Assembly (NCBI GenBank): GCA_965153455.1
Contig: OZ234493.1
Location: 30,990,213 to 31,054,212, forward strand
Reading direction: 5' to 3'
Length of the DNA stretch: 64,000 bases
DNA from: Sphagnum compactum
Taxonomy: Eukaryota
Shown in pieces: positions 4,290-60,362 of this stretch (within the stretch, counting starts at the first letter, position 1; each line of letters begins with the position of its first letter). The translations under genes were made by a program, and so were the position numbers. The notes beneath the pieces are model-generated. The model was not told the origin of the DNA, searched no databases, and saw nothing but the letters and a program-made list of their open reading frames with translations.

Positions 4290-7200
4290 TGTCACAGATG
4301 ACAATGACATGAGGTTCATCATTTGAATGTTCATCCATGACTTGTAATAAATTTGTATTTAACTTTTAATTGAATTTTAGTTCATTTTTAGTTAACTCGC
4401 ATTCACTTTCAATTCACTTTTAATTAACCCTTAGTTCACTTTTAGTTCATTCTTAATTAACTTTTAATTCGCTTCCAAGTTAATTTTTAATTCACTTCTA
4501 GTTTATTTATACTTCATTCTTAGTCAACTTATAATTTACTTTTAATTGAATTTTAATTCACTTCTAATTGAGTCTTAGTTTATTCATAGTTCACACATGG
4601 GTGCACATTGACACACATTGGTGAACATGGGTCACATGTAGATTAGAAATTTCTTGAGAAATTTCTTTTGAATTAAGTTCCCCAGGGGTATAAATGGAAG
4701 TAAAATTCCCCATTACTTTTAGTTTGTTCAACACCAATTTTGGGTACCTTTTTTGTCATAGCCTTGTTCTGTTTTCATTTTTTCCTTACAATAAAATCTT
4801 ATTGGATACTTGTTCCACATGTGTCATGTTTTTATTCTTGTTCTTCTTATTTCACAATTTGGATTTGGAACTAAGCCAACCTTTATTCTCGTTTTGGTTA
4901 GGAAATCCTATAGACTTGATTATTTTTGTACTCATGACAATTAGTCATTTTTGTCTTTTATGACTAGAATAATAGTCATAAACTCAGTGTCATAGATGGT
5001 AATGCCATGTAATTCATTCATTTGAATGTTCATCCACGATTTGTAATGAACTTGCATCTAATTCCTATTTAATTCTAATTCACTCTCAGTTATCTTTTAA
5101 TTAAGTTGTAGTTCACTTCTAGTTCATTTGCATTTAACTTTTAGTACACTCTTAATGCACTTTCAACTCACTTCTAGTTAATTCTTAGTTAACTTTTAGT
5201 TAAATTCAAATTAAGTCCCAGTTTAGTTCTAATTAAGTCTAAGTTATTTCCTAGATAGCTCCCAATTAACTTTTACTTAAGTCATAGTTAATTCCCAATT
5301 AACTCTCAGTCAATTTTGAGTTAAGTTTTAATTAAGTTTTAATTAATTCATAGTTGACTCTTAATTATGAAGGTTTCTTTTTAAAAAATTATTTGATGCA
5401 CACATAGAAGTTTTTTTAAGCTAAGTCCTCAAAAGGGTATAAATATAAATAGGACCCTCATTTCCTTCAGTCTGTTCAATACTAATTTTAAGCACGATCT
5501 TGCACCATAACCTTGTCATGTTCTTTTCATGTTCATGTATGCATATGGTAGCAAAATAAAGATTCGTTTTCATGTTTGTCTTGCACATCTCGTGTTCTTG
5601 TTCTTAGTTCTTATGTTTTTGTTTTTGAATCACATAATCTCGTCTTGTTCCTTGTTTGAAAGTTAGACGTGGACCTTTCTTTTAGCCTTTATTCTTGTGG
5701 TTTTTTGCGTCTTTGACATTCGGTCATATATTTAAAGATTTTTAGCAGTGAAAATAGTTGCAAATGACACTTTTCATTACATTGGACAAATCACAAAATG
5801 GGTTTTTCCTATTAGTGGATGTGGCATGTTTCAAACCCATAAAAACAACCTTTTAAAAAAAAATTATGCAATGGTTAAAAACAATTATTGCAAACTAGAC
5901 AAGAGAACTTTAGTAAGTTGGGTAGACAAATATTTAGACCAAGCTTTGATCAAGACAAACATAATGGCCAGGTTTAGAACTACAAGGATCTAGTTATTAA
6001 ACCTTAACGCCATGGATGAGAAAACAAACCCTAGTAGTGTGTACACAATAGTCAATGTGACCAGGGACAAAAATGATGATCACATATCAAATTAGGAGGA
6101 AGATGATGAAACCTAATGGGGAGAAGGTCTTTAGTTGCAATAGAGATGTTTAACGTAACAACAATAGGTTTAGAGTCACAAGCTAATGATATGCATGAAA
6201 ATCTACCCAGGTACTATGTGGTTATGCTTCAAATCCATGTGGCCACAAATTAAGACATCATAATAGATCCAACAAATTTTGTTTTGAACATAGACAACAC
6301 TACATTGGAGGTGGAAACTAATTACAAGAATTCTAAACACTTAACTTAGGAAACATTGTCAACTAGCAATCTATTTTCCTTACCACATATCCTTATAAAA
6401 CAAATGCATGGAAAGAGCGATTAATAGATTGTTCACAAAACCACATTGTAACTTCAACTTAATATTTAAACATCATGTGATAAAAAGGTATTTAAAATCA
6501 AGCAATAGAAGAAATCACACAGATGTAAAGGAAGGAAATGTAAGAGAAGCAAGTTAAAAAGGTTACAAGTTCATTGATTATAATTGAAAGAATAATTTGA
6601 GGGGAATTTGAAAAACAACAAATGGAAAATTTTATCTTAGCTTGGTCGACCAATGTGGCTCAAAAGGCAAGAAAAAGGTTACATTAGAATTACCAAGTTG
6701 GCCTATGAATTCACCCACTTGGTTATAGGGATGTTGACTCAGGCTGGACAACAAAGGTTTAAAGAAAATTTATATAACAGAATAAGGCATGTATGTGTCA
6801 CGAATGCTAACACCATGAGTTCACATATGAATGTTCATCCATAATTTGAAATGAACTTATACTTAATTCTTAGTTTACATTATGAGAAAATCATCTTTGT
6901 TGCAACTAGGTTATCTACTTGTAATCTAGTTCTATTGGACATTTTTTAGTTGCAACGAACAAGTTGCAATGGACACGATTTTTTCATAGTGTTAGTTTTA
7001 GTTCACTCTTAGTTAACTTTTAATTAAATTTTAGTTAACCTATAGTTCATTTCCAATCAACTATTAATTCACTTTTAGTTAAGTCATAATTCATTTTTAA
7101 GTAAATCTTAATTCACTTTTAGTTAACTCTTAGTTCATTTCCAATTCACTTTTAATTAACTCTCAATTCATTCTTGGTTGAATTTTAGTTCACTTTAATT

Positions 7201-7520
7201 AATTCATAATTCACACATGGGTACACATGGGCCACATCTAGGTTAGAAGTTTAAAAAAAACTTCCTTGAACAAGGTGCCCAATAGGTATATTTATGGAAG
7301 TAGAATTCCCCATTACTTTTAATTTGTTCATTGTTAGTTTTGTAGTACATTTTTTTGTCATAGCCTTGTTTTATTCTCATTTCTTCCTTGCAATAAAATC
7401 TTGTCGGATTTTTATTTTGCACGTGTTGTGTTCTTTTTCTTGTTTTTCTTGTTTCATGATCGAGATTTAGAATTAGGCATATCTTTATTCTCATCCTGGT
7501 TAGGAAATTTTGTAACCTTG
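4290..7520. repeat. Three degenerate copies of a repeat with ~11-bp AATTCACTTTT/TTAGTTAAC microrepeats (approx. 4290-4940, 5000-5560, 6810-7520)
   Basis: Shared anchors 'tgaatgttcatcca', 'ttcacacatgggt..aca', 'aattccccattactttta' and 'gtcatagccttgtt' recur between the blocks. Confidence 0.7.
5790..6020 (+). mobile_element. Degenerate pogo/DDE-1 transposase relic, C-terminal part
   Basis: ORF 5748..5993 and read-through: LDKRTLVSWVDKYLDQALIKTNIMARFRTTRI*LLNLNAMD matches the typical 'NIxxGFRxTGIWPLN' tail of DDE-1 transposases. Confidence 0.55.
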
Positions 7521-8760: not shown

Positions 8761-9417
8761 CAAGCTAAAGTTCTTGGGATGGAGGAGGAAGCTATGGAAA
8801 ATGTGGTTACTATGCCCAGAGTTTAGCACTACGATTCGGATTCAAAATATTAGGGTTCATGGAACATTGATATTCCTATGGCCATAGATCTTTTACCCCA
8901 TTTTTAGATTAAATCAGAACCACAAAAGTCAATGTGAATGTTTATTTAATGAGATATGTTTAATTTGGACATCATCCATTTTTATGAAAGATGAGGAATT
9001 GTTCATTTGCTAATTGTTGAATGTTTGGTTATAGGAGGGAGAAATAGCCCTTGAGGGCTGTAGCCTGAGGGTGTAGACCCCAAAATTAAGGTAGGCCCTT
9101 GAGAGCAGGCCTTCCCAAGCGTAAAGCAGAAGTGGTTCTTTCATTCAAACAGTGGAAGGTTTGCATGTGATCAGCCAATGGGTCCTTCAACTGAGGAAGG
9201 AGGTGCTTTCAAATACAAGGAAAAAACCCTTGGAGTGCTTTAGTATGTCTAGTATGAGTACCTAGTATGTCTTCCTTCACAAGAGATTATTTATTGTAAG
9301 TTTTATGAGAACAATACAATATTATTTTCTGTACAATTTAACAATTTCAACAATTTTCTATAAATGAAAATTCATTTGATTTAATAATCAGAATGCTTTT
9401 GAGATGTACCTACCCAA

Positions 9418-9738
9418 TAAAACAATGGGTGTGTCACACTGTGGCCTTGCCATTTCCAATAAGAAGTATCCTAAGGCAAATGAAAAGAATTATGGAAACT
9501 CAAATATTTCACCATGCAAAAATATAACCTTCAAAAAATCCTCTAAAAAAAACCAAAATCCTTCAAGATATTATAACGCTATAACTAATCTCAAGTTTCA
9601 ACACAAGCCAAAATATCATCTTTCAAAAATCCTCATATAAAAATGGACCTATTACCTAGGGGCCAAAATCCCTTAAGCTACTATACTCTATAATGAATCT
9701 AAACACAATATCCTTGCCTTGGTAGGCAAGGCCGACAA
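9418..9738 (+). repeat. ~320-bp dispersed repeat, copy A (uninterrupted; empty site for the 13223..16049 Helitron)
   Basis: Highly similar to 12959..13222 joined to 16050..16104. Imperfect inverted ends TGTGGCCTTGCC / GGCAAGGCCGACA suggest a MITE. Confidence 0.85.
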
Positions 9739-10583
9739 TTATCCTCCATGGGTCACCTTATAGTTTGGCCCCTAGTTGTAATTTGGCAATAAACCAGATA
9801 TGAAGTATAAATCTTTGAACATCCTTTTATATTTTTGGTTACACACTGGAAACCAAATATAGAAATATGGTGACTTTTACTTCTTTTTTTCTTGCTCATT
9901 TGTATTGAATAAGAATTTCCAAAATCACATCATATCATTTTAAAATTTAATATTTTCACTTTGGATGAGATGTCACCTCTCCAAAACAAGCTACTATGCA
10001 GATTTTTTAAAACTTTTTGTGAAATTTCTCCTAAATGTGAAAGATAAAAAATCAATTCAGTTTACAATATTCCCATTTTCCTGGAAAAAAAAATATTGGA
10101 AAAAAACTTTCACAACATTTGGACTACAATTTTTGTTTGGTAGCATTCTTTAAACTAGGTTTTTTTACTACCTAAGATCCTGTGGCCATTTAATGCTACA
10201 TCCCTCTTGGGATGCTAGCCACTGGCACAACATCAGAAAATTGAAAATAAAATAAAATAAAATAAAATAATATATATATATATATCACAGCTGCTGTGGG
10301 TCCATTGGATGAATGTTTTCCTTTGATCTTTAGATATGCCAAAGCAGTAATCTACCTTTTCCCTTCAAATCTATCCATGACAATCCTTAAATTATGGAAT
10401 GTTCCTGAACTTGAAAGGTGGAGGTCCTGAGAAATGATATGCCCAGTTGCCAGAGTCAATCAGCACCCACCAGTGCACCACCAACTCCATGGTCATTATG
10501 AATCATAACTCACTTGTGGATGAACTTCAACTGAGTTAATAATATCTAAGAACTTGTTATGTAAGAAGTAGGTCCTATTCCTA

Positions 10584-11026
10584 TCTATCTATGAAGTAAG
10601 GGAGTTTGTTTTGTTTTGTTTTGTAGTTATGAGATCCACCGAATTTGGGATGCTTCTGATCGTGTTGTTAGTGTCTTTGGAAAGCTCTTGACAAGGAGGG
10701 GTGCATGGGCTTGGTTCCATGGTGTTTGGACTTGAGGTGCAAAAGTTCTTGAATATTGAATGATTTCTTCACTGAAAATTAAATTAAATCATAGATGAAA
10801 ATTTCAGAGGAATTGGAATGTGCCTTTGGTGTTGTTGGAAAGATCTTGATGAGCAGGATTTAATGGAATTTATTTGGTAAGATTTGGATTCAGAATGTGG
10901 GAGATATTGATTTAAAAATGATTTCTGCCGCTGAAAATTCAAATAAATTCCAAAAAACCAGGTTTTGGAAGGAAAAATCAGTTGAGGACGTGGTAACACT
11001 TGGATCAATGGCACATGCCACACTAT
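10584..11026 (+). mobile_element. ~440-bp non-autonomous Helitron-like repeat, family H1 copy 1
   Basis: A|TCTATCTATGAAG start and ...GGCACATGCCACACTAT|T end; similar along its length to 17320..17756 (-) and 26233..26663 (+); no TSD. Confidence 0.75.
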
Positions 11027-12958
11027 TGTGTATATATATATATATGCACACATAGAGAGATAGTAGGTAAGAAAATAGGTGACCATTAGGGAAGTAGATG
11101 GTTTATATTTTTTGGCTACCTACTTACTAGAACTTATCATAAAAAAATCTGGGAATCTGGGGAAAAAAAAGAAAAGAAAAGGAAATCTGGCGATTCTGGG
11201 CCATTGTTAAAATCCTTTGTATAGGTCTAAATCATATTTTTCAAGTCGAAATTTGGCAAAATTTCACCACCAAAAAAAGGACACTGGTACTCACTTTGAC
11301 AAGTGAAAATTGTTAGTTTCAGTTCCAGTTGAACCAGTGTTGGCCAGGTATCATAATTTTCTCATATTTGCTGGATCTGGTTTTTACAAAATAACTTACA
11401 AGGTTTTGGTTTTCATTTTGTATTCTTAAAAAAAAATCACCATACTGAGACAGGGTATCAATATCTTTCTAAAATAAATTTGAACCGGTTCTCACAATGT
11501 TGATTCTCATTAATTTGAAAACAGTTGGTCATCATTTGACAAGTCTCACAAACTGATTATTATTATTTTTCAAATAAAAAATCTTAACCAAAATTACAAA
11601 CAAATTATTGATTTTATTCTTTTTCTTAAAATTCAAAAGAGCATAACCAATAGAGTTATCTATAGAGTAAGAAAAACACAGCATCATCTGAACCCTGAGT
11701 TTGGTCATACACGGGGAGAGATTTTAAAAAAAACCTTGCAAAACAATACATTAGGAGAGAGAAACCCAACAAACAACCAAATTTGTGGTAAGCTGAGTTT
11801 CATCTTGTCTTCCCATTTTCCTGAGCACCTCCACTGCTGTCTATATAGTAAACCCCTTCTATAATCACCCCCATTTTAGTCACATTCTTGTTTGTGTCAC
11901 ACATTTTTTTTTTGGGAACCATCTGTTTTAGTAAGAAATTCAATTTTTTATAATCATTATCACACTCGTTAGTAACACAAAATATTTGCAAATCTTTCTT
12001 TGTAACTAACTGTGACTATAATGAGGAAAACCTAGAGCAAATATTAGGGTTTTATAGATTGTAATTTCCTTTGGCAATGTTAATGCTACTTTGTGTTTAA
12101 GTTGTGCAAACTAAGAACAATGAATTCAATTGAAGAGAAAAAGAAAAAATAACTTTCTAGTGCACACAAGCAAAAAGATATGTGAATTTGTTAAGAAAGC
12201 AAAAAATCTTAATTCAGAAAATCTAATTAACAAGATACACAAGCAAATAGTTAAGAAGGTCAAACTCAATATAAATTGTCATATTAGAACATACAGAAAT
12301 CACAACGTTTTTCAAATCTAATAATGCATAATAGAGTCTAGAATAACATGTGTAAAAAATTTAAACAATTGACACCTTTATTCTATCATAAAAAGAAGTT
12401 TTTGTAAGGTTTTTTTGTCGCCTATAGTCACAATCTTGTAAGGGTTTAGATGAAATGTGAGTATACTACACGTTTAAATCACAGACTACTCAAATTAGTT
12501 CGAACTTTGTACACTAAACATTATACACTGTACTTTGAGAACCTGACTCCGGTAATGAGATTTTATCTCACCTGGGTCTCAATATTTTTTTTTTTTCCTT
12601 AATCTGATTCTTACATAAGTAAGACATGATGATCGGGTTTTCAATCAGGGTATCACTGTGATGCCCTAAAAGGTTAAAATAAAGAAATGCTGGTAACCAC
12701 CCAACACAAGTGGCTTAGACATAAGTAAGGGTTGGTTTTACTACCAATTGTTGGGTTGTTAGTACAATTTGGTTGTTACTTGGTAGATAGTATAGAAAGC
12801 AATTCTAGCTAACCACAACCGTTAGCTAGGGAACTGGAACTTGAGAGAATCCTGTTTCTGACTACTATGTAAAGCACTGGCAATATTTTTTCCACTGTTT
12901 TCTAAAGGCACATTTTTCTAAAGCAAAATCTGTCCTCTGCCAATGCCAAGGCATTTTT

Positions 12959-13222
12959 AAAAACAAAGCGTGTGTCACACTGTGGCCTTGCGATTTCCAA
13001 TAAGAAGTATATTAAGGCAAAAGAAGAATTATGGAAACTCAAATGTTTCATCATGCAAAAATATAATCTTCAAAAAATCCTCTAGAAGAAACCCAAACCC
13101 TTCAAGATATTATAACCCTGTAACTAATCTCAAGTTTCAACACAAGCCAAAATATCATCTTTCAGAAATCCTCATATAAAATAAGACCTATTACCTATGG
13201 GTCAAAATCCATTAAGCTACTA
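12959..13222 (+). repeat. ~320-bp dispersed repeat, copy B left part (continues at 16050..16104)
   Basis: Aligns with 9418..9683 up to ...TTAAGCTACTA; the remainder TACTCTATAATGA(G/A)TCTAAACACAATATCCT resumes at 16050. Confidence 0.85.
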
Positions 13223-13452
13223 TCTATTTATATAATATCCTTGGGTGGTCGTCCTTTCCATCCATTCGTTCCGTCATTCGTCCATCCAAGTTCCTCATCC
13301 CGGAAGAAGAAGATGATGGAACGGGAGGAGGACGACGACTCATGGCGGCGGCAGCAGTTTATCCACATGTTCATGTGATCCTGTTAGCGCAGTTTGTTTT
13401 AGCACTGCGAAATTATTTTTGTGTGGTCTGCAGGAATTTAGCAGAGCGAGTG

Positions 13453-13581
13453 ATGGAGGGCCAGCAACAACAGAAACCAAATGGAGGCACGAAGAAGAAA
13501 GATACCAGTCCGAAGCTGCCAAAGAGAGGAGACATCTTATGGGGGATCGTCACACCAAAGGAGCTCAAAAGTAAGAGATGA
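13453..13581 (+). CDS. 42-aa small ORF inside the Helitron, resembling uncharacterised plant small proteins with an LP(P)KRG motif
   Basis: MEGQQQQKPNGGTKKKDTSPKLPKRGDILWGIVTPKELKSKR; the MEG start and LPKRGxI motif recall the plant 'LPPKRGQIK' small-protein family. Confidence 0.35.
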   Translation: MEGQQQQKPNGGTKKKDTSPKLPKRGDILWGIVTPKELKSKR

Positions 13582-13833
13582 ACAACTTTAAGGCAGTACG
13601 TGGAAGCGCCTGGAGGGAAGTGGTGGCAGTGGAGTTCAAAGAAGACTGGGTTAGTCTTCCAGATGATCAACTCCCTTCCAGGACTAGCTTCCAAGTTTGA
13701 AATTTATCTTTGAGTAACAAACTATGAAAGACTAACCCACTTGAGCTTTCCGTGAGTATACGGTAGTCTATCAACCAAAGAGTCGATTCCAAACTGCAAA
13801 AAATGAAAATTTTTAAGACATCTTCCTGCCCTT

Positions 13834-14412
13834 CTAGAGTGGAAACGCAGTTGAAAAGCTGGAAAATAGACATTCAAGTCTCTCACCAATCATCATCTTG
13901 GCATGCAAATAGATCCTGAAGCGGCGGTTGTAGTGGCTGTTATCTTCTGGGCTCTGTGTAGGCACATATTCACCCTCTGTCTTCGGTTTGGGATTTCCAA
14001 TTTCGGTTGGGATTGTTCCTGTGAAGGAGTTGGAGCTCAGATCCAGATGCTGCAGAGTTGTGATGGAGAAAAGCTTGGGAGCCAGAGTGCCAGAAAGACC
14101 CAGTTGGTGAAGAGTCACTCCTGAGACTTGCCCCAAGCTGTTGCAGGTAATTCTTGTCCAGTGACATGGTCCTTGCATGTCAGGAGCTGCTAGCACCCAA
14201 TCTGGATATGGATCTGCTCCTTGCCATGTAGTTCCTTGCTTGAATGCCCATAATGCTGCTATGTCATTGTCGTCGACCACAGATGCAGCTGCTGCAGTAA
14301 CAACCATGACAACTTGAAGGTGGTTTCTTCTTCCAGCTAGACGGCCTACAAGAAACAGTAGTAGCAGTAGGATCAGCAGCAACTTGATGAAGCTCCATGA
14401 TCTCTGAGCCAT
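13834..14412 (-). CDS. Chimeric ORF: LRR receptor-like N-terminus (signal peptide, LRRNT, ~2 LRRs) fused in frame to a phospholipase D fragment
   Basis: MAQRSWSFIKLLLILLLLLFLVG (signal peptide), DIAALWAFK..PDW..PCHWTRITC (LRRNT), LSGTLAPKLFSITTLQHLDLSSNSFTGTIPTEIGN (plant LRR), then PKPKTEGEYVPTQSPEDNSHYNRRFRIYLHAKMMI (PLD second HKD region). ORF track start at 14511 is an upstream alternative. Confidence 0.75.
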   Translation of the reverse strand: MAQRSWSFIKLLLILLLLLFLVGRLAGRRNHLQVVMVVTAAAASVVDDNDIAALWAFKQGTTWQGADPYPDWVLAAPDMQGPCHWTRITCNSLGQVSGVTLHQLGLSGTLAPKLFSITTLQHLDLSSNSFTGTIPTEIGNPKPKTEGEYVPTQSPEDNSHYNRRFRIYLHAKMMIGERLECLFSSFSTAFPL

Positions 14413-16377
14413 CAACTGTCCAGGAAGCTGAGCAAAAGCAACAGTAACAACAAACTGTGTGGTGGTTCTTCCTCTTCCAATGCTGATCATGAGCTGCTTC
14501 ATCAAGCTCATGGAGCTAGAGAAGATTGATACCCATCACTCTGAGCTGCTTTTGAAGCTTCTGAAGCTTCTTCTTCCTCTGACCATGAAGCTGAAAACTT
14601 AGACTCAAAGCTGAAGTTCTCTCACCATAAGTCTTGGTCCCATGAAGCTGAAAGCTTAAACTCAAAGCCTAGACTTTTCTCTTAGTAACTCCTTCTCTTC
14701 TTGAGCAGGAACCGATGAAAACATTCTCCATAGCTGGCAATGTAACAGTGCTCAAGGGAAGTTCAACTTCTGAACTCTAGACTTGCTTGAGCTTCATGTT
14801 CTCATGATGAAAACTAAGCAGCCTTGGAAAAGATCCATGGAAAAGCACAAGACATGGGAATGAACATATTTTAATGCCCTCATCAGCAAGTCTTCTTCAT
14901 GGCCAAGACTCTCTTGATTGTCTGTCTGTCACAAGCCCTCCCTTTTTTTTTGATCTGAAAAATCAGCTTGATCATCATCATCATCATCATTTGCCACATA
15001 TATAGCAGGCACATGAACAACTGTGGAAATTAAGAAGCCAGACATATCAGCAATGTGTGCAAAGGAGCCAAAATTTTTTTGATTGCTCAATGCAAGCTGT
15101 CAAACACTGATCCTACTGAAGAGTCTGCAGCAGATCATCTTTTTTGCTTAGGTACTATCATCCTATTGGAAATGGTGCTTTTGGATGCAGAAGGTGTTAC
15201 AGATTTTCAGAAGTAACTTCTGATGCTTTATAATTAAACCAATGAATGAAGAGGAAGAAGAGTCCCCTTTGGAAGGCCCGCGCGTTCGCCGGAACCATCT
15301 TGCCCGAGAGAGGCACTCTGCTCGATCTAAGGAGCAACGTGCAGCGGATGCTAGCCGACGTCCTCCTTGGGGGTAAGGGGGTTAGGGTTAGCACTGGATT
15401 ATAATGGATTATGGAGTAGGTTCAAAATTATTCTTTACTATTTTACTCAGTAATGGTAGAGATAAAGCCATGAAAAAAGTCAAGGTTTGCATACGTCAAT
15501 GGTCATTTTTTACTTTGCTTTTGTAAGTGCATCCCAACTTGACTGCCTTTAATTGGGGCTATGATGTGCATTGGGTCATCAATTTAAACTGTTTTTAGAA
15601 CATGTGGGCATTGGACACGACTCCACCCGGCTCACCCGGCCCACCCCCCCAAGATGCAAAACATTATCTCCCCACCAAACTTAAGGGGGTTAGGGTTAGC
15701 ACACCTTTCATAAATGCGTTTCAAAAGAAGAAAGCTTGGAATTTGCCCAAATCCTCCACAAATCTTGGCAATTTCAAAACCTGTTTTTTTTCTCCTCAAA
15801 ATGTGCTGATTCAAAACTATTTTTTTTCACCCTCCTGAAAATGTGGCGATTTAGTTTTTTTTTTGGAAATTTTCCAAAACGCTCGCTTCACCATGTATGT
15901 TTTCATGGGAGACTTTTCAACGGATTTTCGCCACAAAAAATAAATAAAATAAAAATAAAATTAGCTGCTTTGCACCTTTGTGTGTGTCTCTCTCGGTTTA
16001 AAGAAACCAAGGGACTTCACAGTGTCCGAAGGTCACGGGTACCCACTAGTACTCTATAATGAGTCTAAACACAATATCCTCGCCTTGGTAGGGAAGGCCA
16101 ACCAAATGCCCATTCCAACTAGTGTTCCGACTTCAAAACATCTCGCCCCTTTTTGGCCATTCTTCCCATGATATCCTCACAAGAACTTTGTGGATGTTTT
16201 ATGCAGGTAAAATCAAATACCCGGCCCCACACAGGTTCAAACTTCACCCTGGCCCTGGGCGGCCAATCCATGTATAAAGTCAAGGCCACCGTTTGGAATC
16301 TAAATTGCTACTTGTGGGACTTTATGAAGAGACAACTTTTGGTTGCATTGTCCTTGAGGTTTAGGTTAAGATACAGG

Positions 16378-16606
16378 TGGTGCATTCACACTTGGTGTTA
16401 GGGGACTCCACCCTGGAGTCCCCTAACACCATGCTAGTCATTTAGGATTTACATCTACTTACCATAAACATTTTATATCAAGCTCTCATTATTGTAACAT
16501 TAATAAGCTCTCATCCATTTAAGATTGGGTGCCAACTAGGATGCCACTTAGGATGCCACCTAGATTTTCATTTTACACGGACTTAACATCAAGTGTGAAT
16601 GCACCA
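16378..16606. mobile_element. ~230-bp MITE with 23-bp terminal inverted repeats
   Basis: TGGTGCATTCACACTTGGTGTTA ... TAACATCAAGTGTGAATGCACCA (22/23 match); no clear TSD retained. Confidence 0.8.
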
Positions 16607-17319
16607 GAAGTGTTAGGTATTCAATGGATTTCTCCAATGTGGTGAACGTATTTACTAAAGCCCACATTGGCCTGACACTTTGTTCCAAATCTCAATCCAT
16701 AGTTGCAGTGTGGTAGAAGGAGTAGGTAGCTGTTTAGATAGTTTATGACCTTTTTTTGGTGGAGAGACGGTAAATACGACACGCCCCCACCTGCCCCCAA
16801 ATCGAGCTCGCTCTGGAGCTCGCTCTGTCCGGCGCCTGTTTTTCTTATCTTCTTGCACATGTTTTTGGGCCCCTGCATGATTCGGCATAAAACCATGCAG
16901 CATGGTTCTACATGTTCTTGTAATTTTGCAAAAGAACAGAATGACGTTCTTTTCACTTATTAATTAATTTACGTCCTGCAGCAGCTCACCGGATCCGAAA
17001 CCAGAACCTTCCAGGTGTTGAACACGCTTCCAACTGCCACAACCAGTTCTCCGCAGGGCTGCACTGTCAGGCCCAGAAATGGGGCCGGACAGTGCTCGAT
17101 GGCGGACATTTAACGTCTCGCCTTTTTTCTGGAGCACCAATAAGTTCTATACATTACAAAAGTCTCTTACTATTGAAGAACATGAAAGCTCAGACTTGCA
17201 CCGAACCCTGTCTGAATATGCCCCCTTTGGTTTAAACGAGAGTAATGAATGTAGTCCACTCCTAGCAAAAGACAACATTCAAGTTGGTGGTTTTGATGGT
17301 GCCCAAATTTCAACAATAA

Positions 17320-17756
17320 CAAGTGTGGCCTGTGCCGTCGGGCCCAAGTGTTACCATGTCCTCCACTGATTTTTCCTTCCAAAACCTGGTTTTTGGGAAT
17401 TTATTTGAATTTTCAGCGCCAGAGATCGCTTTAAAATTCCATATCTCCCACATTCTGATTTCAAATCTTACCAAATAAATTCCATTAAATCCTGCTCATC
17501 AGGATCTTTCCAACAACACCAAAGGCACATTCCAATTCCTCTGAAATTTTCAGCTATGATTTAATTTAATTGTCAGTGAAGAAATCATTCTATATTCAAG
17601 AACTTTTGTATCATAAGTCCGCACGTGTGAAGCCCATGCACCCCTCCTCATCAAGCACCTTTCCAAAGACACCGAGAACACGATCTGAAGCATTATCACC
17701 CTTCGGTGGACCTCATAACTACAAAACAAAACAAACTACCTTGCTTCATAGATAGA
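17320..17756 (-). mobile_element. Helitron-like family H1 copy 2 (reverse orientation)
   Basis: Minus strand reads A|TCTATCTATGAAG ... GGCACAGGCCACACTTG|T; homologous to 10584..11026. Confidence 0.75.
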
Positions 17757-18289
17757 TTGGCCAATACAACCCTAGGTCTAGTCAACTTCCTCTTCTAGGA
17801 GTTGACAAACCCAATGCCAGAGACCAGCTCCTGGGACTGACACTCTACTCCCAAAGGGACCTGCTATCTATCACACTCTAACCTTGCCAACTTGGCCTGT
17901 TAATCCACACCAGTTCTTGTTTGGTCATTTTTGCAGTGGGCCAACCTCTGCAGTGCATGTGGTGCTGTTGTGGCTAAAAGCAAGTTGGTGTAGGAGTTCT
18001 GTCTGAATTGCCCCAGTAGCACCTTTTTTATTATTTCGATGTGACTGCCACTTAAATCCTGAATTTTCGGTGTCCCCTCCTAAAACTCTAAACGTGAAAA
18101 CATCTGGTTCTCATTGAAATGAACTTAGAGTTTTTGGGCTGTTCTTCAATAGCATTTGGTGTTTTGATGGTGAGGTGTGAAATATTCTTTTGAAATCTGA
18201 CAATTACTTGGGAGCAAACTATAAAATTTTCAGGTGATGAACAATTGTTCGAATGCACTTTTTTTTAATAAAAAAACTATAAGAAACAA

Positions 18290-19600: not shown

Positions 19601-21811
19601 AGGGTTTCAACTTGCAATTCCATATCATGATTTCTAAACATTATGGTCAATTGTATGATTTTCAAAAAAATAAAATTTCCTTCCTTTTTGTACAAGTAGT
19701 TACCTTTTCTTAAAAATAAAAATTTGGTAATAATTTGCTAAAACAGACATTAATCCATGCTCTTTGAAAAAATGAGTAAAACCTAGTTGATTGGTAGGGC
19801 TTTAGTAGCAAGGTAGCATAAGGGACCAACAAGGATTGTCCTTAATTGTAGGTCTTGAACAAACAAATAGTTCATGGGGCAATGGTTTTGCTTCCTATTC
19901 TTTATGGTAAGTTCAAATTAGTGTTGTGCATGTAAGTATAAATAACCATTTTACATGCCATGTAAAACCATGTAAATGTCAATCACAATGCATAAGGGTA
20001 TTACACTACCCGTGCTATCTTTGGAGATTATGGTTTGTCAGAAAATAAAGGTATTTGCACCTCAAACTTTTCATTGATAACTATGGGTTTCTAAAACAAC
20101 AAGGCAAGAACACAACAAAAGTAAACATGAGGAGGGGGGGCTAACTTGAAACAAGTTGCTTATGAAGCTTACAACAATGCTAGGAATTACAAGATGACCA
20201 TGATCCCATGACTTAAACTTGCAAATATTCTAAATGAATAGGAACAACATGGGGAGTTCACCTTAAATTCTAATCCTTGTTTTGCACGACCAAAATGAAA
20301 GGAATTGTAAAACAACCACAAAAAAAAATAAAAAATGCAACACAACAAGGTAATGAATAATTAGTAAAAAAAACTCATTTGAAACATTGTTGGAGCTTTG
20401 AACAATGTAAAGAATTGTAAGATGACAACATCATCAACTACACTTGCAAACAAACCATAAACAAAGGAGAAGAACATGGGGGAACTCATAAGATCACAAG
20501 GAAAAAAGTTTTGCAAATATCCTTTCTCCATACCTAACCCTCTCTTCTTTTCTAACGATCTTTTTTTTACCTTGTGCATACTATTTGTGAAACCCTTTCC
20601 CCTGCTTTTCCTTCTTTCTTTGTTGAATTAACTTCATTTTAATAAGTATTGTTTTGAAAAAAAAAGAAAAAAGAAAATGCAATATCACATTTGCTATCAC
20701 ATGTTCTGTTAATTTATTTGTTTACACTCTTTTGTGCAATGTGTAAAATTATATAAATGTATGTGACTTTTAAAAAAAATTACACTTACATTTATCATGT
20801 TTTACATGGGGTGAAATAACATGACACAATTTTATATTTATAACTATACGTTCAAAATTATACACTTACACTTACTCGATATATATAGATATATATACAC
20901 AACATTGGTTCAAACTAATGTTGATCTAAGACCTAGGATTGGTAGGTGTACATGGTAAAAGCCTCATCACAAATTCATGCCAGTCAAAGCTTGGACCCAA
21001 CCCAAGAATGCTAATTAAGGTCATCTAGACTCAACCCTAGAACCAGCCCTATGATCTTAAGGCCAAGTTATAGGAGGTACCAGCGCTCCACCGAACTTTT
21101 GTCTTGTGTTCTTTTGTTTGATGATGAGCCTATTTCATTAACTTGTCTAATTTTGAGACCCAAAGAGGACTATTTGAAATTCTCCCCCGGTTTGTTTACC
21201 GGTATAATTTATAGCAGTGAACCATCGGGCAAAAAAATTCCCCCCTTCCCCATGCCCTCCTACACGTTGGGTTTCAAGTTCAAGCCAAAACTGTAGCCCC
21301 CAAATCAAATTTGTTGACTTAATCTTACGTAGTTTCATTTGATGCGCAACAAATGAAAGAAGATCGCAACTTTGTTTGAAAAACTTGTCTAATTATGGGC
21401 TGATTCTGTGATTCATATCATCCATGATGTAGAATCAATTTGAATCCAGTCATATATACCTAGTCAAGTGAACATTATTAAGATGATTATCACTTATTAA
21501 AATAACAAATTATTGTGGAAGAATAATCAGAAAATAATCAACCTTTGAACCAGCATTTTTTTTTAAGGCAAAATGTCTCATCCTGGTGACAAATAGAAAG
21601 CCAATATAGTGCAACTGATACAGAGGATTTGTTTTTGGAAAAATGGCCGAAAGTCACAAAGTTTAGAGAAAAAAGATTCTGAAATCACCAAATTTAGACA
21701 AGAGGTTCTAGACAATAGACACATCCGTAAAGTAACCCTGTTTTTGCCCTGTCTTTGGGCCTCCTTTCACCCCTATCCCCTCTTTCAGTGTTATCCACAA
21801 AGCAAACACAT

Positions 21812-22753
21812 TCTATATAGTAAAGGACGTAGTGGTCCTGAAGCTTTGGGATGAAATGACGTTTTTCATCCATCCGTTCGTCATCCGTCCCGTCATCCAT
21901 CCAAACAGAACAAATATATATTTTAAAAAGGGAAAAAACTAGAAAAAAAATAAAAACAGAAAAACACTTTAACAATTAGAAACTTTTTGTAAACACTTAA
22001 ACATGAAACAAAAAAGGGAAATGCAGTAAAATAATCCTAAAAAAAATAAAAAAATAGATGACAAAAAATAAGAAACAAAACAGAGAGCAAAAGAAAGAGA
22101 AAAAAACCATACTTGAAAAATAAATGAGGTTTGTCTTCTTTTTCCAAACTTCAAACCTGCATCTAATCAAACAAAATAAAAAAAGTTTTGTTTAATTATT
22201 TTTATTATAAAACATATTAGAAAAACTAGATTTTTTTTGGAAAAGAAAATAGAAACTAAATAAATAAATAAACGCATAAAAATAGAAAAAAAATGAAGAT
22301 ATACAAAATAAGAATGGAAAAAATAAAACATGAAACAAACATAAACAAAAAAAAGTAAAAACACAAAAACTATAAAAAAGGAATGGAAACAAATGAAACA
22401 AGGAAAGGGAAATACAGTAAAATCATTTTAAAAGGAAAAAAATTACAAAAAAGAAGAAACCAAATAAAGAGTAGAAAATAAGAAAAAATAAAACTTATAA
22501 TAATGAAGAAAAACCCTACTTGAAAAAGAATGAGGTGTGTCTTCTTTCTCCAAACTTCAAACTTGCATCCAAATAAAACAAAATACAAAAGTGAAAAAGA
22601 ACACTTTGTTTTTATTATACAAAATAATAATAAAAACAGAAAACACATAAAAATAAAAAATAAAAAAGATAAAAGTTTTAAAAAAAAACTAAAACATGAA
22701 CCAAACATTGTTGAAATAACACACCTGTGCATTAGGCAGGGGGTTCAAACTAG
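21812..22753 (+). mobile_element. Non-autonomous Helitron, family H2 copy 1 (A-rich interior)
   Basis: 5' TCTATATAGTAAAGGACGT with CCATCC/GTCC-rich subterminus; 3' CCTGTGCATTAGGCAGGGGGTTCAAACTAG|T (hairpin + CTAG). Confidence 0.75.
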
Positions 22754-23721
22754 TTTTATTAAATCTCAGTACGAAATGCTGAAACTCAGCATTTAATGCA
22801 CAATGTTGGGGACTAACTATAGCACTTGTACAAGTAGGAGCAATGAAAATATCTGTAGCAGCAGTGGTGGCGCTCAGGAAAAAGGAAAGTCAGGATGAAA
22901 CTCAGTTTACCACTAAAGTTGATGGTTTTCTGAGTTTCAACCCCCCCCCCCCCTTCAATGCTAATGTACTTTTTTTCAGGTCTTTTTTGAACCAGAACCC
23001 ACCCTGTGTGTGACCAAACTCAGGGTTCTGGTGCTGTGTTTGTCTTACTTTACGGTTAACTCTACTAGTGTGTCACCTACATAGACCCAGTTGGGAAAAC
23101 AACTGAAAATTTTAAACCTGACTTTGATGGATTTCTCAAGTACCTCTCAACAAGTGGCGGTGTCAGTAAGTTAGTAGACGTAATATTTATGATTCAATTT
23201 TTATACTCAACACTTTGTTCAGTTTAGTTGACAATCCTGTGCAACTGGGCTAGGCCTCTGGCAGCTCCATTTATGGTTTTTGTTGACACGAGAACTCCCA
23301 TCATGATGCCCACTCTGGCCCACTCTTCCTCCCCCAGCTGCCATGCCATGGCTCTCTCTGCATCAATTGCTTACAATCAGCTGCCGCGTACATGCATGCC
23401 TGGGTTATTAAGTTGGGTAGTTGGCAATGACATAATTACTTATTCAAGAATGTCAATGGGATAGTAAATGATCATCAAGATTCGTGCTGGATTTTTACAT
23501 TCATTGCCAGAGACGCGCTCCTCACCTCTTCCATTTAAGCTGGACCTTGATGCACTTTGCTGTATCACAAGTCTCTCACCCAGTATTAGTCCAGCTTGTT
23601 GAAGTCTCTCGATCTCAGTTGCTAGCTGTTCCTTCGGTCGTCTAGAGTCTAAGGTGAAGTGGGTTTTGTGATCTGAGAAGATTCTAGTAAGAGGGATCTT
23701 CGATCTGCTGCTGCTGCAATC

Positions 23722-24516
23722 ATGGCGAAGCTGTCACCTGCTGCTGTAGTATGCATTGGTCTGCTGGTGGTTATGGCTGTGGCGACTCAAGTGACTAGTG
23801 CCAGCTGCCCAAATGCTTACTATTACTACTCGTGCCTGAGCGCAGCACAGAACCCCAGAGTGTATCCGAGCTCCACTTGCTGCGGCTTGATCAGGAAAGT
23901 TGGCCTGACGGCCGGAGGACCCGCGTGTCTGTGTGCGATGGCGAAGTCCGGGACGTTCAATGTCAATTTCTATGCTGCTCGATCCTTGGTTTCCAAATGC
24001 GGACTCCCCAACCCCACCGGCTACGTTTGCAGTACGCGTTCTTTCTTCGACTTTGCAAAACCTAGAATCGTTATTTCTACTACTACTACTGTGCTGCCGA
24101 TCAAATCTTCCAAAGCTGTCCACTCTCTCTAGTCTTGCCTAGCCGGCAGATCAAGTAGCTGCTGGGCCTAGCTCGTTTTCTGAATATGTGCATGAACTCT
24201 TATAATAAGCTGCTTTCAGTTCAGGTTATGTTCTATCTTTTCTCTCTTGTGGAAGTGATTAATATAGGAGCTCCTTCTGAATATTCTGGTTCAAGTTCTA
24301 GTCTTGTCATCGCTACTAGTACAGCAGCTCGAGTCTGATTGTCATGATTTCACCACGTAATTATTATAAACTTCGAATATTGAAGGATTGTATGCATGCT
24401 GCAACTGATCATTACTTGGCTTGTGGGACTCATACCAGACTGATGCAGTTACCGATCACTTGGAGTATCCGGCTGAAGCACTAAGGTTATCTCGATTACT
24501 CATTCTCCTTCTATAA
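23722..24516 (+). CDS. Non-specific lipid transfer protein (nsLTP, 8-Cys motif). Exon 1 23722..24031; candidate exon 2 24449..24516 (uncertain)
   Basis: Signal peptide plus C-X8-C-X14-CC-X14-CLC-X21-C-X9-C. GT (GTACGC) just after the last Cys codon is a typical LTP intron position. The second exon is chosen from a TGCAG acceptor giving ITDHLEYPAEALRLSRLLILLL*; the unspliced ORF ends at 24132. Confidence 0.85.
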
Positions 24517-25843: not shown

Positions 25844-26232
25844 TTATGGTAAGCATGGGAACAAGCATGAAACTTCTTAAAAACAAATGTTCCCATGCTT
25901 CCGATGGTAAAAGTTCCCAAGCATCGGATTCATTATTTGTTCCACAATGCCCTGTTGCAACACTAGAAAAATGGCAACTTCGCTTTATGGGTGCTGTGCA
26001 AATGGAGTTGTAAACTGACCCCCCAAACAAACACCTGGCAAAATATACAGCCACCTACATCAAGGCACAAGCACCAAGTGTAGCTAAGCGTTTTGTAGAG
26101 ACTTACTTGGCAGCCAAGTTTGGCAGGCCTGAAATCTTACAGCAGTGTTCTTTAGGGCTTTTAGTCCACATGTCAGAGAAACTCCATCAGTGGTCAGTAG
26201 GGTATTAACAACTTTTGCACAGTGGGTATATA

Positions 26233-26663
26233 TCTATCTATGAAGGAAGGTAGTTTGTTTTGTTTTGTAGTTAAGAGATCTGCCAAACCGGGATGTTTCA
26301 AATCGTGTTCTTGGTGTCTTTGGAAAGCTCTTGACGAAAATGGGTGCATGGGCTTTGGTGCCATGACATTTGGACTTCCCGTGCAAAAGTTCTTCAACAT
26401 CGAATGATTTCTTCACTGAAAATTAAATATTTAAATCATAGCTGAAAATTTTGGAGGAATTGGAATGTGTCTTTGGTGTTGTTGGAAAGGTCTTGATGAG
26501 TAGGATTTCATGGAATTTATTTGGTTTCAGAAATTGGGAGATATTGATTTTTAAATTATTTCTGCTGCTGAAAATTCAAATAAATTTCAAAAAACCAGGT
26601 TTTGGAAAGAAAAATCAGTTGAGGACGTGGTAACACTTGGGCCAATGGCACAGGCCACACTAC
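26233..26663 (+). mobile_element. Helitron-like family H1 copy 3
   Basis: A|TCTATCTATGAAG ... GGGCCAATGGCACAGGCCACACTAC|T; homologous to copies 1 and 2. Confidence 0.75.
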
Positions 26664-28854
26664 TTTGCATTAAGAAACCACATTGGTAAATCCCTACCCG
26701 TCAAGGGACTCTACCATAACAAAAAAGTTCTTCTCCTGTACAGATGTCTATCTATTACTTTAGAGTTTCCAATCCAAATAAGTCATGTGCTTTAAGTATA
26801 GCCCATTATCATTTACCTCACTTTCTTCTGAGCTCTTCATTCTAAAGGGCATTATTGGATGTTTGATATTTAATGCCCAGCACAGTTTGCACCGTACATT
26901 ATGGAAAGATCTGCCACCCATCAATTTCTGGCCCTCAAATATTAAAATATTAAGATTTTGGAAATGATACCAAAAGTGTGGTAAGGGCCATGATTTGTGG
27001 TTTGGAAGATTTCAACTAGGTATAAACAAACATATTTATGGATGAATTGAAAATAAGTGAAATGGCTTAAATCTTAAGCACTATTTTTATTCTCAAATTT
27101 TTAGTACATATATTCTTGATTATTTGAATTTAAACTATGACACCATAATTTTGCAAAATTTTCACATTTCTTTTTTGTTGAACAAAGCACAAGACTTTTC
27201 AAAGAATTTTTTATTATAAAAAAACACTTATCTTTAGCAAGTGCTCCATCTACAACATAGCTTCTAGTTCAAATGTCAAAATCTGAAAAAAATACTATAA
27301 AATAATGTATTTCCCATTCTATGGCTTATTTTCAATGACAACAACAAAATGGATGTTACAAAAACAATCATGAATAGAGCATATAAATAATATGTTTTGA
27401 CCTTAGGATTAAATATCCATCCTAGGGTCAAAACATATTATTTCTAGCCATAGTTGTTTGTGTGTTCAAATGGGAGTTACAATGTGATGGACAAGGTAAC
27501 CAACAAAAAGTTGTTGGGTTATTGCATATAATTACTCCACAACCTGGGACGGGGTGAAAAGGCGGGGTGAAAAGGGGGGTTGGGGGGGGGGAGAACACAA
27601 TTCAAAAATAAATAAATAATATGTGAGGAAAAATATAGGTTGCTATATATTGGTTGTTGAGTAAAAATATAAGTTAATAAGTTCAAAAATAGGGTTACGT
27701 ATATTTTGAATATAAAATTATAATTAATATAAGGTATGTGCAAAAAAATTAATATTAATTTTTTTAATTAAAAATAACATTTGCATTAAAGATTTAAAGT
27801 ATTAGTTGTTAGTAGGTTCAATAATTTTGAAATAATGTTTTGATTAATTGTATAGGGTGATTATAAGGTCAATTTTTTATTTTTTTATTGTGGGGTGTAC
27901 ATTGTGCAAGATGACAACATTTTGAACTATGAGAAGTGTAAAGACATATTGATTAGATTGTCTTGATGCAATTTTTTTGGAAGAATTTGTGACTAATAAA
28001 AGTTTGTAAATTTTATTTTTTTTCCTTTCAATTACATTCCATGGTTTCATTTTTTCTTTTAGCTACAAACTTTTCTAGCTACAAATTTTCTAAAACAAAT
28101 TTTTCAATTAATATAGGGTATTGAAATTGGATGCTAGAAAAAAATTATAAACAAATATAGGGTGACTAAAATATGTGCACATTAGAAAATTAAATAATAA
28201 TAGGGGTGAGAGAAAATATAAATCCAAAACTTAATACCCCCACCAAAAATAATTGTTTGACGCACGTAGGTCACAAAAATAACATTAAGTGTCCCCCTTG
28301 GGCTCCACAAATGTAATGACATCATGTGCGATAACTAGGTAGCTCAACCTAGTTATCTAACATAACTAGTCATGGATGGTCATGAAATAGTCATTTGTTC
28401 CCCTTTGACTAGATGTATTATAGACACAAGTTATGGGAAAATAGGTCAATGGCATGCCTTCCCTTGAAGGTCAACTCAAGTTATGAATGACAATCAATTG
28501 TGTGGCATGGTGCACATGGATTATCACTTATAACATACATGCAACCAACCAATCGTGTTGCGAAACGTTCCTCAATGTCAACTAGTTTTGTTGTGAGAAT
28601 AGTCAAAGTTTGATCCATCAATAATGGCACATCACAATATGGAAATGAAACTTGTATAATGTAAATTATTGCATAAAGTACCCACATTATGAGAAAATCA
28701 AAGATTTTGTAATTGGGATTGCAAATATATTTTTGAATTGTAATGAACATTTACAACTCATGATATTAATACAATGTGAATACTATTGGACAAGTTGTAG
28801 CAATTGCACTACACACCCCAAAGTTGTATATAGTATTGTGTATTACTAAATATA

Positions 28855-59711: not shown

Positions 59712-60362
59712 TGCCCCCGGTTTTTTCTAGCTGCAGAACTTGAGATTGAATTCGCAATAACGTTGTTGAGATCGCATGAGAGAAACTCCAGAAGAAGAGC
59801 CTCACGTCAAGACTTCTGGAGATGGGTCCCGCAAGAATCTGTCTGTCGATTCCGGCAATCCTTCAACAACCCGCGTTTGGCTTAGGGTTTTTATCTATCC
59901 CTTGAGGAAATCCACTCTTGGGTGCTTCCAGGATTGGCAGCAGTTCCTCTCGAGGAATGCTGACGAATCTAGGGTTTGGGTTTTATAGCCGCGAGAGATA
60001 GATAGATAGATAGATAGATGGGTACATGCACTCGCGCGAGATTCTAGTCTGCGACTTCTCGCAATCGTCTTGAGGACCCATTTCGCTTCTCAATCTCTCC
60101 ACCCATCATCCGCATCCCCGCAGCTGAGGGATTCGAGAATCTAGGGTTTGGATTTCCATAACTGCGAGCGATAGATAGATAGATGGGTCCATGCGCACGC
60201 GCGAGATTCTAGTCCGCGACTGCTCGCAATCGTCTTGAGGAACCATTTCGGTTCGGTATCTCTCTACCCACCATCAGCATTCTCCCCCAGCCGAGGGATT
60301 CGTGAATCTAGGGTTTGGATTTCCGTGCGGAAGCCACCTTTGATGCACGCTTTGGTATCGGC
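59712..60362. promoter_or_regulatory. Candidate bidirectional promoter/5'UTRs (651 bp) with four telo-boxes and a ~170-bp tandem duplication
   Basis: Divergent ATGs at 59711 (-) and 60363 (+). TAGGGTTT at ~59883, 59970, 60142 and 60309. Units 59965-60136 and 60137-60303 each contain (GATA)n and CGCGCGAG. Confidence 0.65.

Follow-up and report, generated by a model that had tools for sequence, protein, structure and literature searches.

We analysed a 64,000-nt stretch of Sphagnum compactum DNA (GenBank assembly GCA_965153455.1, contig OZ234493.1, positions 30,990,213 to 31,054,212 of the forward strand; the whole stretch is hereafter called the window, and all coordinates are positions in it), in which one copy of an abundant ~320-bp repeat is split by a 2,827-bp insert with the ends of a Helitron transposon. 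The insert, the two parts of the repeat on either side of it, and an intact upstream copy of the same repeat are as follows (TSD, target-site duplication; TIR, terminal inverted repeat).

9418..9738, + strand: intact, paralogous copy (copy A) of the high-copy interspersed repeat, used as a proxy for the empty site; junction at 9684|9685
12959..13222, + strand: left part of the split repeat, 3'-most letters ...AAGCTACTA; 266 nt, 91.0% identical to copy A
13223..16049, + strand: insert of 2,827 bp, very probably a non-autonomous canonical Helitron; 5'-TC, 3'-CTAG, A|T target, no TSD, no TIRs
16050..16102, + strand: right part of the split repeat, beginning TACTCTATAATG; border at 16101/16102; 58 nt at 91.4% to copy A

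Boundaries, termini, and backbone of the insert

At the junction, copy A reads ...AAGCTACTA|TACTCTATAATG... (9684|9685), and the interrupted copy (copy B) has the same letters on the two sides of the insert, i.e., ...AAGCTACTA at 13214..13222 and TACTCTATAATG from 16050, with the 2,827 bp between them starting with TCTATTTATATAATATCC and ending with ...GGTCACGGGTACCCACTAG. When 9380..9800 was locally aligned to the two flanks put together (12920..13222 + 16050..16150), a single colinear block of 318 columns (9419..9736) resulted, with 26 mismatches and, well away from the junction, one gap of 2 nt (~91% identity, counted from the printed alignment), while the A|T junction itself was gap-free and zero bases were duplicated or lost. 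The pairing of copies A and B was also recovered by independent repeat comparisons (200 nt at 92%; 266 nt at 91.0% plus 58 nt at 91.4%). A preliminary description of this DNA had reported a ~320-bp repeat intact at 9418..9738, a second copy split at A|T by 2,827 bp, and no TSD, and had proposed the above alignment as a check; the letters, the colinearity, and the lack of any duplication all agree with it. Its further statement that the paralog fixes the boundaries to the base holds for the junction, which is exact, but needs to be relaxed by 1 nt for the insert, as one T can be assigned to either side; A|TC...CTAG|T, which follows the Helitron convention, is one of the two possible boundary readings.

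The interrupted repeat is very abundant. In Logan contigs of four public runs (three species labels) mapped onto 12300..17000 of the window, its summed contig depth exceeded 1e5, compared to ~20-45 in the single-copy flanks, and its right border appeared as loose ends at 16101/16102 in 4/4 runs. In the best of these runs, the share of sampled words present was 0.60; two runs labelled 'moss metagenome', at 0.20, were left out. Copies at 78-95% identity were also found in 15 of the 120 loci that were fetched for the Helitron family (see below). The repeat has a sub-terminal inverted 9-mer (GGCCTTGCC/GGCAAGGCC), and inspection by eye revealed neither a TIR at its extreme ends nor a clear duplication. 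Because the target repeat is so abundant, the 'empty site' within the window is a paralogous repeat copy and not the orthologous pre-insertion allele, so that the earlier claim of an exact empty site preserved in the window is right about an uninterrupted copy being present and has to be corrected as to what that copy is. A paralogous copy is nevertheless legitimate for fixing the boundaries of an insert.

To the right of the insert, a further very high-copy repeat (16382..16695) had sharply defined loose ends in 4/4 runs, at 16542 and 16606.

Relatives of the insert were obtained by scanning metagenome contigs for its exact last 22 nt, which were present in at least 120 contigs of a related host, and 120 loci (L-numbered) were then fetched; counts for the 3' end refer to the matches listed, and the family total is a lower bound. 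The family contigs are eukaryotic (with NB-ARC, ankyrin, and leucine-rich repeat (LRR) genes) and share the window's repeats at 84-95%, which indicates that their host is that of the window or a close relative of it. Among the matches listed, similarity stopped at CTAG in 121 of 121, where CTAG itself was fixed by the construction of the search, and the 3' end was followed by 105 distinct downstream flanks (96 after removal of near-duplicates) whose first base was T in 92 of 96, A in 3, and C in 1. Outside the searched 22-mer, positions -33..-23 had consensus frequencies of 0.79-0.98 (107 distinct copies), and the conservation of these 11 nt indicates that the matches are homologous rather than due to chance. 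Further upstream, at -70..-41, frequencies dropped mostly to 0.36-0.66 (a few up to 0.79) and several subfamilies were visible, so that the conserved 3' end common to all subfamilies measures ~34 nt (TTCACAGTGTCCGAAGGTCACGGGTACCCACTAG). Such a ~34-nt conserved terminus on divergent bodies is the usual pattern of a Helitron family. The ~60 nt preceding it define a 3' subfamily, which the window has in common with loci that code for the Helitron protein RepHel (positions -78..-23 of the window are 87.5-95% identical to L011, L025, L036, L037, and L095).

The 5' end (TCTAYTTATATAATATCC...) recurred at 25 places with 16 distinct upstream flanks among the fetched loci, starting with TCT in 23/25 and with TTT in 2/25, compared to TCTATTT at 13223 in the window. 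The preceding base was A in 8/16 distinct flanks and G in 8/16, and is A in the window. At the other end, the CTAG at 16046..16049 represents the CTRR motif. No TIRs were detected: the initial 18 nt showed no resemblance to the reverse-complemented final 18 nt, and no inverted repeat joining the ends appeared in the inverted-repeat comparison. By our own rough estimate, a random insertion would combine TC, CTRR, and an A|T target at its ends with a chance of ~1e-4. In excerpts of two published accounts, TC...CTRR ends, an A|T target, and the absence of a TSD are given as the defining features of HLE1 Helitrons (PMC11417382, PMC4778049). The Helitron signatures listed in the preliminary description were therefore well placed, with both termini being multi-copy and having unrelated flanks in related-host contigs, and with homology ending at the predicted bases. 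In the public runs, contig depth was also high over both insert ends, a signal that is confounded by low-complexity tracts.

Comparison of the insert with the 120 fetched loci (blastn, E<=1e-5) separated a family backbone from cargo, as follows (ORF, open reading frame; PLD, phospholipase D).

13223..13538, + strand: 5' family module, left terminus TCTATTTATATAATATCCTTGG plus ~300 bp; matches in up to 16 loci
13539..15232: cargo, ~1.7 kb; 0 matches in the 120 family loci at this threshold
13837..14535, - strand: chimeric ORF of 233 codons, LRR-receptor N-terminus fused to a PLD alpha exon
13837..14001, - strand: PLD alpha fragment, an exon piece with the second HKD region (...IYLHAKMMI), then intron read-through past the GT donor
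13993..14511, - strand: 5' part of an LRR receptor(-like kinase) gene, with upstream ORF, signal peptide, LRRNT_2, and first LRR; in frame with PLD
15233..15394, + strand: internal module, 76-85% in 6 loci (L002, L008, L054, L082, L093, L115)
15682..15780: internal module common to up to 8 loci (blastn)
15873..16049, + strand: 3' family module, up to 137 blastn matches; ~34 nt conserved in all subfamilies

Within the 5' module, 13223..13287 matched L010, L081, and L120 at 89%, and 13247..13538 matched L044 and L083 at 89-90%, while the internal module at 15233..15394 contains a 36-nt core at 97-100%. The view that the gene-like pieces between the ends are cargo is thus appropriate for the host-gene fragments, but 13223..~13538, 15233..15394, 15682..15780, and 15873..16049 are sequence of the family itself. 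We also observed a 21-nt direct repeat (15374..15394 and 15682..15702, containing GGGTTAGGGTTAG) with 287 bp of Helitron sequence between its two units; the stretch 15395..15779 is left out of contigs from X1 and X2, and elsewhere in the family a given site has a single unit only.

Host-gene fragments and coding relatives

The chimeric frame in the cargo joins two unrelated host-gene pieces. Residues 9-145 of the ORF are 87% identical to P0241, a protein of 156 residues with an LRRNT_2 domain from a JGI contig, and Pfam recognised LRR_1 (E 1.8e-4) and LRRNT_2 (E 5.5e-4; 20.6 bits vs. a cut-off of 20.7) in the window ORF. For residues 179-233, the match is the end of P0243, at 78% identity. In a search of solved structures, P0243 aligned to residues 470-668 of Arabidopsis PLD alpha 1 (6kz8; E 1.1e-88), while Pfam did not recognise it as a PLD fragment. 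The PLD fragment in the window has 15 nt (5 residues) fewer than the host-type gene, and a contig from X2 has an extra 15 nt at 13927, as in the host-type PLD gene. Since the PLD match runs on into what reads as intron, this piece was copied from genomic DNA and not from mRNA.

The LRR and PLD pieces meet at ~13992 in the window. A 4,045-bp contig of run X1 matched the window with only its last 725 bp, over 13992..14707 (11 differences, 9 gap letters), which shows that the LRR piece is also present at another locus, whose similarity to the window ends precisely where LRR and PLD meet. This is the picture expected of a parent gene and a captured fragment, in which we infer which locus is the parent. 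A search among longer proteins was dominated by multi-LRR proteins, whose best local identities were 36-66% across short segments, and did not yield a parent gene. The 233-codon LRR-PLD frame is probably a by-product rather than a resident gene.

Several of the fetched loci code for the proteins that the window element lacks. L011 has a PIF1 helicase frame of 474 codons (E 7.9e-54) on the same strand, 240 bp upstream of the family 3' end, and PIF1 (L032, E 1.8e-58) or Helitron_like_N (L083, E 2.5e-48) also lies upstream of this end elsewhere. In L010, Helitron_like_N (E 1.3e-13) is followed by PIF1 pieces (1.1e-14, 9.7e-34) in a broken frame, then by the 3' end, and then in tandem by a 5' end that is 89% identical to that of the window, while L036 and L025 have Rep-like sequence, helicase-like sequence, and the 3' end of the window's subfamily in colinear order (91% over -78..-23). 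Overall, tblastn detected helicase similarity in 18/120 loci and Rep similarity in 7/120, and zero RepHel similarity anywhere in the whole 64-kb window. With no RepHel in the window, and with 2,827 bp being too short, the element is non-autonomous, in agreement with what had been proposed from the letters.

A probable gene-capturing Helitron and its alternatives

Taken together, these data make us highly confident that 13223..16049 is one non-autonomous HLE1 Helitron inserted in a high-copy repeat, with captured LRR and PLD alpha cargo that is antisense to the element. Mechanistically, a RepHel protein of the same family would have mobilised the window element in trans, and the transfer may have followed a rolling-circle or copy-and-paste single-strand route, as shown for Helraiser. 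The host fragments would have been acquired at the DNA level, as suggested by the included intron and upstream sequence, and this acquisition would have taken place before or during an earlier transposition.

Several observations weigh against this interpretation. A second copy of either 150-bp terminus is absent from the 64-kb window, and the related copies come from related-host metagenome contigs rather than from the window's own genome; similarly, the closest proteins to the two fragments (78-87% identical) are from JGI contigs, and parent genes belonging to the genome of the window were not retrieved. A complete intact autonomous element with both termini was not seen among the fetched loci, which are cut, and the Rep domain was absent from 7 ORFs upstream of the L011 helicase. 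The base before TC is G in half of the distinct 5' flanks; two of these eight represent canonical CTAG|TC tandems, and TAG or TCG is the ending of several more. In addition, the short 3' sub-terminal hairpin typical of canonical Helitrons, ~10-12 nt from the end, is weak here and not better than chance: the last 60 nt fold at -5.7 kcal/mol, compared to -5.75 +/- 2.12 for shuffled sequences (z 0.02; 91/200 shuffles fold as well), and the stem is an imperfect 6 bp with one T.T mismatch and a GAA loop, ending 13 nt from the terminus, along with an 8-nt palindrome (GGGTACCC). Of the 3' end described earlier as a hairpin plus CTAG, we therefore retain the CTAG and a weak candidate hairpin.

The public runs are a further point of difficulty, as the orthologous empty site was not seen in the run contigs and neither insert junction was bridged. 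Joints from 13222 to 16050 did occur in X1 (4 contigs), X9 (1), and X11 (5), with sides of at most 53 nt, and these can be traced to further, paralogous copies of the repeat. The flanks of unique sequence were near-exact in X1 and X2 (0-1 differences over 290-679 nt) and contigs broke within the repeat, while the insert interior was covered solely by ~98% pieces that differed from the window at the same places in 4/4 runs. The insert could be absent from the samples, or a low-depth variant could have been dropped in assembly. Of the 35 displayed (best-supported) difference rows in the insert, 20 were transitions with A/T in the window and G/C in the runs and 4 were the opposite, an excess that would fit C-to-T decay of the window copy.

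The alternative that survives best, yet one we regard as unlikely, is that the Helitron is genuine but that the LRR and PLD pieces entered it after insertion, as break-repair filler or by local rearrangement, and were never mobile. The interior was found in 0/120 other family loci, so that mobility of the cargo is not demonstrated; the Gly-Asn codon pair at the LRR|PLD junction (EIGN / LGN) is microhomology such as end-joining also leaves; and the 20 vs. 4 transitions reflect decay of the window copy and are silent on when the pieces arrived. On the other hand, pieces of the interior are present at ~98% in runs of three species labels with a depth 2-12x that of the single-copy flanks, which fits several copies (gene-family paralogs would also explain this depth), and chimeric multi-fragment cargo between intact termini is usual in plant Helitrons according to excerpts of earlier studies (PMC2267711, PMC4778049). 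Even less probable, in our judgement, is an insert made of two or more tandem or nested elements, e.g., with the 3' ~800 bp as a short family member of its own that follows a truncated element with the cargo. The family is rich in head-to-tail tandems, a contig in X1 and X2 joins the 3' end to 5'-like letters, and the 21-nt repeat (15374/15682) together with the X1/X2 variants that skip 15395..15779 points to internal restructuring; against this, nothing internal matches either terminus, and no internal ...CTAG|TC... junction lies within 13223..16049. Lastly, a genomic patchwork with which DNA repair filled a break in the repeat, with TC...CTAG and A|T as coincidences and no transposon involved, would accord with the missing TSD, the mosaic content, and the lack of a second copy of the ends in the window, but it is effectively refuted by at least 120 family copies with identical end positions, as both ends are conserved family ends at which homology halts at exactly these bases and the family 3' end also occurs in RepHel-coding members, and we give it virtually no credence.

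As a captured-cargo Helitron, the window element closely resembles the gene-fragment Helitrons of maize and other flowering plants, which, in the parts of PMC2267711 that bear on this, have TC/CTAG ends, an A|T target, neither TSD nor TIRs, and short conserved termini around a variable interior of unrelated host-gene fragments including introns; head-to-tail pairs with a G/T junction are described there for maize and bat Helitrons alike. It differs from them in that its host is a bryophyte and its hairpin is weak, and in that the maize elements were validated by occupied/vacant polymorphism. With the experimentally active bat element Helraiser/Helibat1, the family shares the terminal di- and tetranucleotide, the AT target, and a Pif1-like RepHel (excerpt of PMC4778049); beyond these motifs, the terminal sequences of the two would not be expected to be similar. 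Among mosses, Helitrons in Physcomitrella are mentioned by way of a citation in an excerpt of PMC4683698, and HelenSM92 of Sphagnum magellanicum is described, in an excerpt of PMC11417382, as an HLE2 family with a captured GIY-YIG domain; compared by description, the latter has short TIRs and a T|T target, unlike the HLE1 element of the window with TC...CTAG and A|T (PMC11417382, same excerpt). The window family may be identical to a moss Helitron family that has already been catalogued, a comparison made by descriptions rather than sequences.

Helitrons, gene capture, tandem junctions, AT-rich targets, and occurrence in mosses are already established, and the window element leaves the knowledge of the Helitron mechanism unchanged, being a clean textbook case and no new kind of element. 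Its value lies elsewhere. For annotation, the LRR-PLD frame at 13837..14535 would be transposon cargo and should not be called a receptor gene, and the exact termini with the 34-nt 3' end are a seed for cataloguing a large family (at least 120 copies in related-host DNA) in a bryophyte lineage whose Helitron content is little described. The element would also represent DNA-level exon shuffling by a Helitron in a non-seed plant, where a signal peptide and LRR module became joined to a lipase exon. Finally, ~100 independent insertion sites and a recurrent landing site provide a natural data set for the study of target choice.

Target preference and other features of the window

Head-to-tail pairs, in which CTAG is followed by TCTAC, TCTTC, TCTAT, or similar, were found in L010/L120, L028, L044, L045, and L117 (degenerate in L008/L054), and X1 and X2 include a contig that runs from the 3' end through 32 letters resembling the 5' end to 15359 onward. 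Among the matches listed, 38/92 distinct non-tandem 3' flanks had a TATAA or ATAAT starting within +3..+16, mostly at +6..+8, compared to 5/92 in the interval +23..+36 and 4.8% for 1,880 A|T sites taken at random from these loci (binomial p 8e-26). A preference for AT-rich DNA, strongest next to the 3' end, is also described for Helraiser (excerpt of PMC4778049); the window family is unlike it in favouring a TATAA/ATAAT box at a set downstream position (+6..+12), which is a sharper form of the known Helitron AT-rich bias.

The site occupied in the window (...CTA|TACTCTATAATG) was also occupied in four other copies of the repeat (L009/L033, L066, L083, L087), by elements with four different 3' subfamilies, and one nucleotide position of the ~320-bp repeat is thus a recurrent Helitron landing site used by five 3' subfamilies including that of the window. 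The flank TACTCTATAATG at this site has a TATAAT-like box at +6. Tentatively, and with considerable reservation, we suggest that the family might read a composite target, i.e., TA|T plus a TATAA/ATAAT box 6-12 nt downstream, which resembles its own CTAG|TCTACTTATATAAT junction, with Rep using the surface that reads the left end. If true, this would account for at least five independent hits at one position, for the frequent head-to-tail arrays, and for the positioned box. In ungapped comparison, the 3' flanks matched the family 5' end at 6.16/16 positions vs. 5.64 (sd 1.74) at random A|T sites, and since this excess is small, such 'left-end mimicry' is hypothesised rather than asserted.

Most of the rare cases with A after the 3' end (L034, L063, L072, L100, L106, L109) represent one recurrent junction, at which a ~200-bp mini-element with a 5' and a 3' end abuts an A-rich module that also forms 22250..22700 of the window. 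These mini-elements are possibly composite elements or the result of read-through past a first 3' end.

A second, different Helitron-like element of ~940 bp lies at 21811..22753 (5' TCTATATAGTAAAGGACG, 3' ...GCATTAGGCAGGGGGTTCAAACTAG and then T). Its 3' end is present in five other copies (L067, L090, L103 twice, L108), all followed by T and with unrelated flanks, and in L067 this end is in tandem with a matching 5' end. The element splits another interspersed repeat, of which L031 925..1000 is an uninterrupted paralogous copy, and its left boundary can be shifted by one T, which makes the target either A|T or T|T.

Three resident genes of the window, each read as a single long frame, are listed here.

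23677..24132, + strand: small cysteine-rich secreted protein; looks like a lipid-transfer protein (translation read by eye)
49226..50587, - strand: resident frame of 453 codons; looks like a pentatricopeptide-repeat protein (translation read by eye)
60363..62189, + strand: chloroplast SRP54 (cpSRP54), 608 codons, no introns; 98% to a JGI protein and 81% to Ceratodon purpureus, the nearest named match

The cpSRP54 matches mark the host as a bryophyte, probably a moss. About 1 kb upstream of cpSRP54 is an interstitial array (58931..59284 + 59966..60005) of ~40-bp units with the plant-type telomere-like motif TTTAGGG. An interspersed repeat of ~450 bp is present in three copies at 84-93% (10580..11033, 17341..17760 in inverted orientation, and 26232..26670) and recurs in L017, L025, L086, L101, and L117. 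Satellite-like tandem arrays with an 11-bp period occupy 4304..5405 and 6959..7207, the most AT-rich part of the window.

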